A stretch of DNA of 20,557 bases from Gemmatimonadota bacterium (GTDB taxonomy: Bacteria; Gemmatimonadota; Gemmatimonadetes; Gemmatimonadales; GWC2-71-9): contig JBDHKN010000115.1 of assembly GCA_039586365.1 (NCBI GenBank), positions 1 to 20,557 of the forward strand, read 5' to 3'. Positions within the stretch are counted from its first letter, which is position 1, and each line of letters begins with the position of its first letter. Under the pieces are notes generated by a model. That model was not told where the DNA came from. It was given only the letters and a program-made list of their open reading frames with translations, and searched no databases. Of the stretch, positions 4,174 through 8,949 are shown one piece after another. The translations under genes were made by a program, and so were the position numbers.

Positions 4174-4207
4174 TCGCTCATACCCGCCTTCTCCGCGTTT
4201 CGGGGTC
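4174..4207 (-). repeat. Start-associated repeat, copy 2
   Basis: GACCCCGAAACGCGGAGAAGGCGGGTATGAGCGA; its ATG (4181) opens only a 19-aa ORF, MSDVFDEPRAIEAIERRHE. Confidence 0.9.
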
Positions 4208-4218
4208 TCAGATCTCAT

Positions 4219-4425
4219 TCACCGGCCCGGGAATGCTTCTTCCGCACAACTAGGACACAATGGAGCGGAGTATGGGTTTTCGCTCACGGTCACAATGTCC
4301 ATCGCATCACACGCAGCCTCACAACCCGCGCAACGCACTCGGCCATCTGGCAGCACGTAGGCTTCTGCGCGTCGTTCACCGCACTCGTGAATGTCTGGCA
4401 AGTGCACCCAATCGTTTTCGCTCAT
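4219..4425 (-). CDS. Small Cys-rich (zinc ribbon-like) protein, 68 aa
   Basis: Start inside repeat copy 3; CAGCEAAC and CPSC motifs. Confidence 0.65.
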   Translation of the reverse strand: MSENDWVHLPDIHECGERRAEAYVLPDGRVRCAGCEAACDAMDIVTVSENPYSAPLCPSCAEEAFPGR

Positions 4426-4453
4426 ATCCGCCGTCTCCGCGTTTCGGGGTCCC
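4418..4453 (-). repeat. Start-associated repeat, copy 3
   Basis: GGGACCCCGAAACGCGGAGACGGCGGATATGAGCGA. Confidence 0.9.
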
Positions 4454-4594
4454 GTTGCCCAGCCGCCGCCGTAGAGTCCCGCAGGCGCTGCGAGAACGCG
4501 TCTGACAGCATTCTGTGGCGTCGCGACCATTCGGGCGCTACGCCGATCGCAACCCACCTGGCGATGCCGTAAACGGCACACCTTCGGGCGCTAC

Positions 4595-4610
4595 TGTTTC
4601 ACGTGAAACA
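4595..4610. promoter_or_regulatory. parS: parS centromere-like site (ParB/Spo0J binding consensus)
   Basis: Exact TGTTTCACGTGAAACA; the palindrome extends to 18 bp (4594-4611); intergenic. Confidence 0.85.
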
Positions 4611-4656
4611 GCCCCTAACCTAGTTTACCACAAGGGTTTACGTTCGGATGGGCCTG

Positions 4657-4702
4657 TTGACTGGGGGTCAAGAGGTCGCTGGTTCGAATCCAGTCGCCCC
4701 GA
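4657..4702 (+). tRNA. 3' fragment of tRNA-Pro(GGG); att core, not a complete tRNA gene
   Basis: Anticodon arm ttga-CTGGGGG-tcaa, variable loop aggtc, T arm gctgg-TTCGAAT-ccagt, acceptor 3' strand cgccccg plus A; no D arm or acceptor 5' strand upstream. Confidence 0.9.
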
Positions 4703-4789
4703 TCGTAAACCCTTGAAAATACGATAGTTACACCTCCTCACGCTTGTCCTAGTCTGGCACATTCGGGCGCTACACGGGCTTTTCGGGCG

Positions 4790-5801
4790 CTACGCCATCT
4801 GCTTAGTCGCTCGCAGAGACTCATTGCAACAGAGCTCCTTGCACGCCGGTAGCGCCGGCAGCGACGTCAGAGCCGAGCAGTCGTAGCAATTGAGCGTCTC
4901 GCACGCCGGCAGATCCGGCAGCGCCGTCAGAGCCGAGCAGCCGTAGCAACAGAGCCTCTCGCACGCCGGCAGGTCCGGCAGCGACGTCAGAGCCGAACAG
5001 TTGGAGCAATCAAGCCTCTCGCACGCCGGTAGATCCGGCAGTGCCGTCAGAGCCGAGCAGCCGTAGCAATAGAGCGCCTCGCACGCCGGCAGATCCGGCA
5101 ACGCCGTCAAAGCCGGGCAGTCGCGGCAATAGAGCCTCTCGCACGCCGGTAGATCCGGCAGCGCCGTCAGAGCCGAGCAGTCGCGGCAATAGAGCCTCTC
5201 GCACGCCGGCAGATCCCGCAGTGCCGTCAGAGCCCAGCGCCGTCAGAGCCGGACAGTTGGAGCAATCGAGCATCTCGCACGCCGGTAGATCCGGCAGCGC
5301 CGTCAGAGCCGAGCAGCGGTGGCAATAGAGCATCTCGCACGCCGGTAGATCCGGCAGCGCCGTCAACGTCGAGCAGCCGTAGCAACAGAGCCTCTCGCAC
5401 GCCGGTAGATCCGGCAGCGCCGTCAGAACCGAGCAGCAGTAGCAATCGAGCCTCTCGCACGCCGGCAGATCCGGCAACGCCGTCAAAGCCGGGCAGCAGG
5501 AGCAATCGAGCACGTGTGTGCGTACCACAGCCTGGCGGCAGCAGTCATTGATTGCATCCTGCCACGTCGGATAGCGCGCCAGCAATACGGCTCGATACCA
5601 GTTGGTATCGTGCGGGTCATCGGTCATCAGCCGGATGGTCAACGCATCCTCCCCAGGGCCGGTCCACTCCCATTCGCGCCACGGCTCGAGGTCGGCAGCA
5701 TGCCACCCCATGTGCTGCTGTGTCGCCTCATGCGATTTCGCGCCGGCACAGACAATCTCCTCGGTTTCGATGTTTAACCACGCTGACAGAAATTCGCACA
5801 C
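4790..5801 (-). pseudogene. LRR protein copy A (11 repeats), frameshifted
   Basis: A 16-bp imperfect duplication (5219-5234/5235-5250) shifts the frame; removing it gives a 331-aa ORF ending SLRATKQMA, like copy B. Confidence 0.85.
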
Positions 5802-5865
5802 GTTGGCACCTCCTCACGCTTGTCCTAGTCTGACACATTCGGGCGCTACACGGGCTTTTCGGGCG

Positions 5866-6561
5866 CTACGCCATCTGCTTAGTCGCTCGCAGAGACTTAT
5901 TGCAATAGAGCTTCTCGCACGCCGGTAGATGCGGCAGCGATGTCAACGCCGAGCAGTCGTAGCAATCGAGCCTCTCGCACGCCGGCAGGTCCGGCAGCGC
6001 CGTCAGAGCCGAGCAGCGGTGGCAATACAGCGTCTCGCACGCCGGTAGATCCGGCAACGCCGTCAGAACCGAGCAGCAGTAGCAATCGAGCCTCTCGCAC
6101 GCCGGTAGATCCGGCAGCGCCGTCAGAGCCGGACAGTTGGAGCAATCGAGCTTCTCGCACGCCGGTAGGTCTGGCAGCGCCGTCAGAGCCGAGCAGCCGT
6201 AGCAATCGAGCCTCTCGCACGCCGGTAGATCCGGCAGCGCCGTCAGAGCCGGACAGTTGGAGCAATCGAGCACGTGTGTGCGTTCCACAGCCTGGCGACA
6301 GCAGTCATTGATTGCATCCTGCCACGTCGGATAGCGAGCCAGTACCAGGGCTCGATACCAGTTGGTATCGTGCGGGTCATCGTGCATCAGGCGGATGGTC
6401 AACGCATCGTCCCCAGGGCCGGTCCACTCCCATTCGCGCCACGGCTCGAGGTCGGCAGCACGCCACCCCATGTGCTCCTGTGTCGCCTCGTGCGATTGGG
6501 CGTCGGCACAGACAATCTCCTCGGTTTCGATGTTTAACCACGCTGACAGAAATTCGCACAC
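5866..6561 (-). CDS. LRR protein copy B (6 x 20-aa Cys-containing LRR, MCEFLS N-terminal domain)
   Basis: ExLxCxxCxxLTALPDLPAC repeats; GAGGAGG RBS; GTG start. Confidence 0.9.
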   Translation of the reverse strand: MCEFLSAWLNIETEEIVCADAQSHEATQEHMGWRAADLEPWREWEWTGPGDDALTIRLMHDDPHDTNWYRALVLARYPTWQDAINDCCRQAVERTHVLDCSNCPALTALPDLPACERLDCYGCSALTALPDLPACEKLDCSNCPALTALPDLPACERLDCYCCSVLTALPDLPACETLYCHRCSALTALPDLPACERLDCYDCSALTSLPHLPACEKLYCNKSLRATKQMA

Positions 6562-7071: not shown

Positions 7072-7320
7072 ATGACTGTAACCGAACTCCCAAGACAAAT
7101 CAGGCGGGACCCGGAAACTGGAGGCGATCGGTTCTGTCGGCGCTATCAGGTACAGCGGCCAGGGCGGCCTGCGCATCTGGTAATCGTAGAGGTCTCGCCA
7201 CTGTCGGATACGCCGCAGGCCGAGACGTGCACCTGTCGCGGCTATAAATACCGGCGCGACTGCGCGCATATCGCCGCCGTAATGGAGACGAGAATGATGA
7301 AAAAGAAACGGAATGCCTAA
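7072..7320 (+). CDS. SWIM zinc-finger protein
   Basis: CTC-x8-CAH (CxC...CxH) motif; good RBS. Confidence 0.8.
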   Translation: MTVTELPRQIRRDPETGGDRFCRRYQVQRPGRPAHLVIVEVSPLSDTPQAETCTCRGYKYRRDCAHIAAVMETRMMKKKRNA

Positions 7321-7375
7321 CCCGAAACGGCCTCCGGGCCGTCTGTCCCGTGTGGCGACGGGGCACTGACGAGGG
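7321..7375 (+). ncRNA. Hammerhead ribozyme, type II
   Basis: ccc-GAAA-cggcc(tccg)ggccg-UC-tgtcccgt(gtggcg)acggggca-CUGACGA-ggg: complete conserved core, three stems, GUC cleavage triplet ending at 7343. Confidence 0.92.
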
Positions 7376-7395
7376 AGCCGAGGGAGAATAGAACG

Positions 7396-7851: not shown

Positions 7852-8949
7852 ATGCCTCGCCGCTCGAAACCTTGCTACGACGCTTCCCGTAACCAGTGGA
7901 TTCTGCGCTACCAGAACACACGCCACTATCTGTGCTCGGGCGCCACGCCGGAGGCTGAACGGCTCGCCTGGACCAAGGCTCGGCAGATCATGGACGAGCC
8001 GACCGTCGGCCGGCCGCCGCGAACGGTTGCCGCTGCCGTCGCCGCTTGGTTGGAGGCTAACGGTACAAGTTGGCATCGAGCGATGCTGGCGCCTTTCTCT
8101 GATTGGGCTGAGGGTGTTACGCTGACCGAGATACATCCCGAATTTCTGGGCGAGTTCCTGAAGTTTCTTCAGCAGACCATCTATAGCTTCTCCACCATGC
8201 GACGACAGCTCCGCTGTGCACACGCCGTGCTGCAATGGTCGCATGTCCGCGGCTACCTGCCGAATCCGGTCCCGCCATTGCCGAAACTCCCGGCGCTCCC
8301 GCATTACTCCCGCGCGGTTGAACCAACCGTGATGCGCCGCGTTTTCGCTGAACTTCGATATCCATCGAAGCACATCTTGACATTCATGGCGGCGACGTGG
8401 TGTCGTCCCGGTGAAGTGTGCGGCTTGAAGTTCACGGAGATTCGCGAGAATCGCTGTATTCTCCGACGTGGCAAAACTTGGAAAGCGACTCAACGCGAAC
8501 GTTGCTTTTTTTTGAATGCCGAAGCTCGACAAGTAATCGCCGCTCAACCGTGGCGCAAGGGTTACGTGTTCCGAAGTCGCCTCGGCAAACCGTATACTGT
8601 GAGCGGACTCGGCGATATCTTCGGCCGCGCCGCTCAACGAGCCGGTGTGCAAATGACGCAATACCAAATCCGGCATACCGGCGCGCAAGATGCGATCAAC
8701 CGTGGCGTTCCCGTCGATGTCGTCGCAATCCAGCTCGGGCATGCGCCGGCTTCGGCCGCGACGCGCGACTACGTCAGTTTTTCGCAAGCACGTACGCATG
8801 ATTTACTCGAATCCCATGTCTCGCCATTAGTTCCCGGTCTTCACGAATCAGCGTTTCCCGCGAAGGACGCTTCGGACTCGCCTTCCCGCAAAACCGCTCG
8901 ACGCTCTCGGCGTAAAAGCGCCAAGGACCGGTCCCGCCGAGCCGGATAG
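7852..8949 (+). CDS. int: Tyrosine recombinase / phage integrase
   Basis: CRPGE, GKT, YQIRH (HxxR variant), LGH and RDY catalytic motifs; N-terminal arm-binding-like segment WILRY. Confidence 0.93.
   Translation: MPRRSKPCYDASRNQWILRYQNTRHYLCSGATPEAERLAWTKARQIMDEPTVGRPPRTVAAAVAAWLEANGTSWHRAMLAPFSDWAEGVTLTEIHPEFLGEFLKFLQQTIYSFSTMRRQLRCAHAVLQWSHVRGYLPNPVPPLPKLPALPHYSRAVEPTVMRRVFAELRYPSKHILTFMAATWCRPGEVCGLKFTEIRENRCILRRGKTWKATQRERCFFLNAEARQVIAAQPWRKGYVFRSRLGKPYTVSGLGDIFGRAAQRAGVQMTQYQIRHTGAQDAINRGVPVDVVAIQLGHAPASAATRDYVSFSQARTHDLLESHVSPLVPGLHESAFPAKDASDSPSRKTARRSRRKSAKDRSRRAG

Follow-up and report, generated by a model that had tools for sequence, protein, structure and literature searches.

A chromosomal-type parS site in the attP of a temperate phage and at the attachment sites of phages with unrelated integrases

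The DNA analysed here, referred to as the window, is the whole 20.6-kb contig C76 (20,557 nucleotides) of a metagenome bin. We found that the window carries a phage attachment site in which a perfect parS 16-mer is located between an arm-type repeat and the tRNA-derived core. Judged by its sequence and surroundings, this 16-mer is a genuine parS of the host type, and it forms part of the P arm of a lambda-like attP. parS was also found at the attachment sites of other phages, and the arrangement is real, recurrent and apparently undescribed, joining two known principles.

Results

The window carries a lambda-like attP

The genes of the window are phage early genes: a tyrosine integrase, a replication initiator, a DnaC-like loader, a Sak4-like protein, an exonuclease, a resolvase and three DNA methyltransferases. 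No structural gene was matched among the window ORFs, and the phage genome is therefore partial. An initial sequence-only reading had called a phage attP with an arm-type repeat in this DNA. This was supported by sequence features, which identify a lambda-like attP of a temperate phage with a tRNA-targeting tyrosine integrase: a tRNA half with phage genes on both sides, arm repeats, a 7-bp overlap and an integrase in cis. The elements follow the order P1, P2, parS, a weak IHF-like site, core-type repeats around 4661-4667, the rest of the tRNA half, a second IHF-like site, P'1 and P'2. The P and H labels follow those of lambda, and IHF-like sites were scored against the E. coli IHF consensus. 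The features are as follows.

4530-4541, plus strand: arm-type repeat P1, 12 bp
4583-4594, plus strand: arm-type repeat P2, 12 bp, joined to parS without a gap
4595-4610, no strand assigned: perfect chromosomal-type parS, a 16-bp palindrome (consensus match)
4628-4640, plus strand: putative weak IHF-like site in the H2 position (3 mismatches to the consensus)
4652-4676, plus strand: core-type inverted repeats 4652-4660 and 4668-4676 (7 of 9 bases pair as an inverted repeat)
4657-4702, plus strand: att common core, the 3' half of tRNA-Pro(GGG) without the 5' half (match to host tRNA genes)
4706-4718, minus strand: IHF-like site in the H' position (1 mismatch to the consensus; one of five such sites in the window)
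4762-4773, plus strand: arm-type repeat P'1
4782-4793, plus strand: arm-type repeat P'2
5838-5869, plus strand: second copy of the P' arm pair, which came along with the tandem duplication of an LRR-like gene
7852-8949, plus strand: tyrosine integrase of 365 aa, at a distance of 3.1 kb from the core (PF00589, phrog_1)

Identity with the host tRNA genes begins at 4657 and no whole tRNA was found in the window. The 7-bp anticodon loop (4661-4667) between the core-type repeats is the probable crossover region. An inverted repeat (4631-4647 and 4699-4715) was also detected, the left arm of which coincides with the weak IHF-like site. By eye, the paired repeats that a related element carries at its attR have the same 53-bp spacing as P1 and P2. 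For an integrase that is 40% identical to that of the window and located at the same tRNA, a separate pair of repeats lies at about +60 and +80, counted from the end of the core. The att sites of relatives have the same repeat count and near-identical spacing with other repeat sequences, which supports the reading of the window repeats as arm sites. The extra repeat copies at 5838 and 5858 are explained by gene duplication, with 5807-5896 being 99% identical to 4731-4820. Two other readings of the region were rejected. Gene-cassette or leader repeats were ruled out as the cores of relatives show this layout with other sequences, and an attL or attR junction with host DNA was ruled out by the phage genes and arm repeats on both sides.

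Other features of the window were recorded as well. The LRR-like gene is tandemly duplicated (4731-6561) together with the P' arm repeats; the two copies are about 88% identical and the copy beside attP is broken across two reading frames (5010-5801 and 4790-5110). A Type II hammerhead ribozyme (RF02276, 64 bits against a gathering score of 37) was detected at 7320-7383 on the plus strand; it lies upstream of the integrase and is flanked by two small genes. A further repeat, roughly 34 bp long, occurs three times (about 1455-1490, 4174-4207 and 4418-4451); read on the minus strand it ends in ATG, and it is possibly a shared gene leader.

A perfect parS abuts an arm repeat

The 16-mer at 4595-4610 has no mismatch to the parS consensus, and no other stretch of the window matches even when 3 mismatches are allowed (expectation 0.04). 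It lies within an 18-bp perfect palindrome (4594-4611). The placement described in the sequence-only reading, abutting an arm repeat and 46 bp from the tRNA-Pro core, proved exact: parS begins one base past P2 (4583-4594) and the tRNA half at 4657 begins 46 bp after parS. At the composition of the window, the expected number of perfect parS copies is 2e-6 for the window as a whole and about 5e-9 for the arm-to-core slot. The 16-mer is identical to the parS consensus quoted in PMC10197239 and to the site in the ParB assays of 10.1101/816959. The same reading had noted that parA and parB are missing from the window, and this held when the 35 window ORFs were compared to Pfam, where none matched ParA or ParB families in this 20.6-kb part of the phage. 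The layout of a phage-encoded parABS system, with parA and parB beside parS, was accordingly not seen in the window. Within the bin, ParB_N was matched on contig C125 alone.

The probable host class uses this parS

The host was traced from the 46-nt tRNA match, as had been suggested at the outset. The core matches exactly at 93 GTDB loci, 92 of which are whole tRNA genes. By eye, 62 of 80 named records at these loci are Planctomycetota and 46 of these are Phycisphaerae. Relatives of the integrase were found in 5 of 401 genomes from this class, mostly adjoining tRNA genes, and the 40%-identical one belongs to an element that occupies this very tRNA, its attL and attR being separated by 44.8 kb. 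As both the core matches and the integrase relatives point there, we infer that the phage host is probably a member of the Phycisphaerae. The element at tRNA-Pro(GGG) at G003:C3:403105-447956 (L253-L255; 44.8 kb) has a frameshifted integrase relative. Its end repeats differ and a further arm-like stretch lies beyond them, suggesting stacked insertions.

The lineage of the bin itself was unsupported as the host, as the bin is without a tRNA-Pro(GGG) gene and C76 is a composition outlier in it (tetranucleotide rank 6 of 114). A matching tRNA 3' half was found in 0 of 30 relatives of the bin, with one loose 2-mismatch match to a degenerate pattern. C76 looks mis-binned and probably is. Because the bin is probably wrong, the ParB and parS on C125 are uninformative about the window phage. 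The same bin holds a second phage contig (L367, G000:C78:7430-7670) with an attP of the same layout at a tRNA-Val half; it has a 32%-identical integrase and no parS, and also looks mis-binned.

The use of this parS consensus by the host, which the sequence-only reading had asked to see confirmed, was borne out for the probable host class. Four of five genomes with the exact core have a parS (0-1 mismatch) just upstream of parB, and 11 of 20 further Phycisphaerae regions checked have parB beside parS. The exact parS 14-mer occurs in 51 of 201 Phycisphaerae genomes, compared to 2 for a reversed control. Seven Phycisphaerae ParB motifs keep the R and G residues, both of which the search pattern itself required; the equivalents of R173 and G201 define the parS specificity of ParB according to excerpts of PMC7383237. 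We conclude that the probable host class, as a class and not as the exact host, appears to use this parS next to parB. Its use by the actual host is likely, with about three quarters of Phycisphaerae genomes being without the exact word. Isolated exact parS 14-mers were also seen in Phycisphaerae (L475-L482, L488); the surrounding DNA, out to about 3 kb, contains neither parB nor an integrase nor a tRNA motif.

parS recurs at the att sites of unrelated phages

IMG/VR was scanned for the parS 14-mer near a tRNA T-arm motif, and tRNA halves were separated from whole tRNAs and chance matches using ARAGORN and inspection by eye. The scan covered 25-54, 55-85 (looser motif) and 225-285 bp upstream and 25-85 bp downstream. 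This revealed 14 further contigs in which parS and a tRNA-half att core are no more than about 60 bp apart: 7 of 27 loci at 25-54 bp upstream, including a complete 45-kb phage, 5 of 104 at 55-85 bp upstream and 2 of 9 at 25-85 bp downstream. In the 225-285 bp control bin, which is probably coding DNA, 0 of 1 loci was an att core. The targets are tRNAs for Pro, Cys, Arg, Thr, Ser, Glu, Met and Leu. A tyrosine integrase is adjacent in 12 of the 14 contigs and the other two contigs end close to the site. With the window integrase included, no pair of these integrases is more than 34% identical, and the same word next to unrelated integrases points to a host protein. Each contig has a single parS at up to 2 mismatches. 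ParB_N was not detected in 13 of the 14 contigs, nor in 6 of 7 near-complete genomes, the exception being a weak match 20 kb away.

A single IMG/VR contig shares the tRNA core of the window. It is a complete phage of 45 kb whose integrase is 34% identical; it has no ParB_N, and its parS (1 mismatch) ends 9 bp before the anticodon loop. A metagenome scan for parS with the Pro(GGG) core returned one locus, on a 45,491-bp contig that is apparently the same phage as L262. Integrase similarity, and not a parS match, led to one further attP in a set of 30 fetched loci; by eye, it has parS directly behind an arm repeat and a non-tRNA core. Single-protein searches returned no close relatives in viral contigs or isolated phages, and otherwise only two proteins without context.

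Within the integrase family of the window, parS is present in two of eight att sites and absent from the other six (L255, L257, L367, L410, L411 and L412), and is therefore optional. It is also absent from two other att halves (L193 and L430). The complete 55-kb relative L410 has a single parS located 8.7 kb from its attP. The expectation that parS would recur in attP was thus upheld in the 14 IMG/VR contigs and the one case found by integrase, but its conservation among relatives was not.

Two further arrangements were seen in these searches. In L386 and L425 parS is encoded within the last codons of the integrase gene, inside attP. Small low-GC phages (IMG/VR contigs of about 15 kb: L268, L279, L305, L368, L381 and similar) carry parS directly before a whole tRNA-Gln-like gene, with the anticodon TTA, a possible ochre suppressor, in several.

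parS lies on the P side and often touches an integrase site

parS is upstream of the core in 12 sites and downstream in 2 (binomial p 0.013). The anticodon loop was located in 12 upstream sites, counting the window. In 6 of these the gap between parS and the loop is just 5-9 bp, which is room for one core-type site, and five of the six are within 2 bp of each other (p ~0.0014). In four more of the 15 sites (window, L355, L365 and L401) parS abuts or overlaps an arm repeat, being just outside the inner arm repeat in L355, and by eye this is also the case in L382. parS touches an integrase site in 10 of the 15; for at least nine touching sites the p value is about 0.001, at a rough 21% chance per site. 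As in the placement of an accessory site, parS is in the arm that goes to attR in 12 of the 14 IMG/VR cases and in the window. The gap from parS to the loop ranges from 5 to 61 bp across phages, and a preference for one helical face was seen with the pile-up counted in full (Rayleigh p 0.02) and not with it collapsed (p 0.23). A fixed position or helical phase, as for IHF, Fis or Xis sites, was therefore not found.

parS is also common on phages away from att sites

To put these counts in context, at least 139 phage loci carry the perfect 16-mer, with no integrase in the fetched flank among the matches listed. In an unselected sample of the matches listed, 118 viral records with a perfect parS, four encode a tyrosine integrase, 5.7-113 kb from parS, and none has parS at a tRNA att core. 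Under rough assumptions, 0.4-1.1 att-side cases would be expected from uniform placement and 4-11 from intergenic placement, compared to 14 seen, an enrichment of about 13- to 33-fold and about 1.3- to 3-fold, respectively. Given the intergenic expectation, the counts alone leave room for a spare-DNA reading. An integrated copy with parS at attR was found in 0 of 401 Planctomycetota genomes (one distance bin) and 0 of 20 regions. Genes of the Xis-type HTH_17 family are present in 10 of 16 of these phages, which rules out parS as an Xis replacement.

The attB was also suggested to be origin-proximal. This was not supported, as tRNA-Pro(GGG) lies 55, 55, 169, 438 and 686 kb and 1.0 Mb from the host parS in six Phycisphaerae genomes, those of 30 with both on one contig, some of which may be close kin.

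Discussion

Proposed role of ParB at attP

parS lies between P2 and the core and on integration would pass to attR. As the phage has no ParB in view, the chromosomal ParB of the host would, with high probability, be the protein that loads at the attP parS. ParB works as a CTP-gated clamp and slides away from parS (excerpts of 10.1101/816959), and in Caulobacter it spreads about 2 kb from one site (excerpts of PMC5815017); with sliding and spreading of this extent the whole attP would be covered. Because parS touches an integrase-binding site, loading of ParB may compete with or modulate intasome assembly on attP and attR. That ParB loading gates or modulates recombination in this way is a tentative proposal, and we consider it close to a balanced call. 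ParB would then be a host-state input like Fis in lambda, most likely acting by occlusion and not by a phased bend. Before integration, the same ParB complex may also tie the circle to the partition machinery, which would make segregation of the circle and integration linked alternatives.

Alternative explanations were weighed against this proposal. Host ParB might do no more than let the circle, whether unintegrated or excised, travel with the nucleoid as in phi29, with attP being merely the largest non-coding stretch available. Such a role in segregation alone is possible, if on balance doubtful. It agrees with the at least 139 perfect 16-mer loci away from att that have no flanking integrase among the matches listed, with the distant parS of the relative L410, with the weak enrichment over intergenic placement and with the phi29 precedent (excerpts of PMC2731898). 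However, if any spare DNA were suitable, a 12:2 split in favour of the P side would be unexpected, as would the pile-up beside the core site, and attP is dense with binding sites. The placement data slightly favour an effect on intasome assembly over segregation alone.

ParB bridging could also draw attP into the ParB complex at the origin and make it easier to meet an origin-proximal attB. We think this improbable. tRNA-Pro(GGG) is 55-686 kb from the host parS in five of the six measurable Phycisphaerae genomes, but the two are 1.0 Mb apart in a chromosome of 3.8 Mb that carries an exact match to the core in its tRNA, and the comparison, from 6 of 30 genomes with kinship possible, covers the probable host class of the window phage and not the hosts of the other 13 phages. 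Similarly low is the probability that the 16-mer is no ParB site at all and is instead a chance palindrome, host DNA acquired by imprecise excision or the site of another protein. The exact 14-mer is found in only about a quarter of the Phycisphaerae genomes (51 of 201), the probable host is known to class level and the bin of the contig is probably wrong, all of which would suit such an origin; yet a chance match in the arm-to-core slot has a probability of only about 5e-9, phage arm repeats flank parS on both sides where the host has its tRNA 5' half, 0 of 93 host loci with this tRNA have parS in the fetched flanks, and four of the five exact-core genomes have parS beside parB.

The proposal that ParB acts on recombination can be taken a step further. 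Unrelated temperate phages of several bacterial groups may repeatedly have put a host centromere on att, with ParB-CTP loading as a switch. With ParB loaded, the integrase sites would be occluded and the circle would persist as an episome carried by the host partition system. A shortage of free ParB would let the intasome form and the phage integrate, after which ParB at attR would damp excision. This full form we consider unlikely on present data.

Relation to known systems

To our knowledge, the host factors known for phage integration are DNA-bending proteins. According to excerpts of PMC4880445, the P2-H2 stretch of lambda holds Xis and Fis sites; Xis at X1 aids integrase binding at P2 and Fis is a non-essential host enhancer. 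The window resembles lambda attP as described there, with arm sites flanking a 7-bp overlap, IHF-like sites flanking the core and a host-protein site between P2 and H2. It differs in that the lambda proteins IHF and Fis bend DNA whereas the factor of the window would be a CTP-dependent sliding clamp (excerpts of 10.1101/816959), and in that the distance from parS to the crossover varies from phage to phage without a fixed phase. By analogy, the window parS works like a borrowed centromere in an accessory-factor slot.

Mycobacteriophages with parABS reportedly stay extrachromosomal and have their own ParA and ParB. They share with the present phages a partition site on a temperate phage (excerpts of PMC7157519), but the present phages keep their integrase and 13 of the 14 contigs encode no ParB. 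The closest likeness in the use of a chromosomal parS by a phage that relies on host ParB is to phi29 and Nf; phi29 has five parS sites read by the host Spo0J, is lytic and protein-primed, and uses its sites for spore entrapment (excerpts of PMC2731898). The window phage, in contrast, has one site inside the attP of a tyrosine-integrase phage with a probable planctomycete host, and the phi29 pattern of several sites on a non-integrating genome was not seen. A parS within an attachment site was not found in the portions of the literature searched (full text, with most subscription journals outside the search), nor is it described in the excerpts of PMC12416852 and PMC6945700.

A centromere in attP next to unrelated integrases points to a link between chromosome segregation and the decision to integrate. 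It bears on how single-copy phage circles survive division before integrating, and on what an extra centromere costs a lysogen; in Caulobacter ectopic copies of parS lower fitness in a position-dependent manner (excerpts of PMC5815017). If the switch is true, a segregation clamp would be a new class of host factor for site-specific recombination, and the choice between carrier state and lysogeny would be tied to the host cell cycle.
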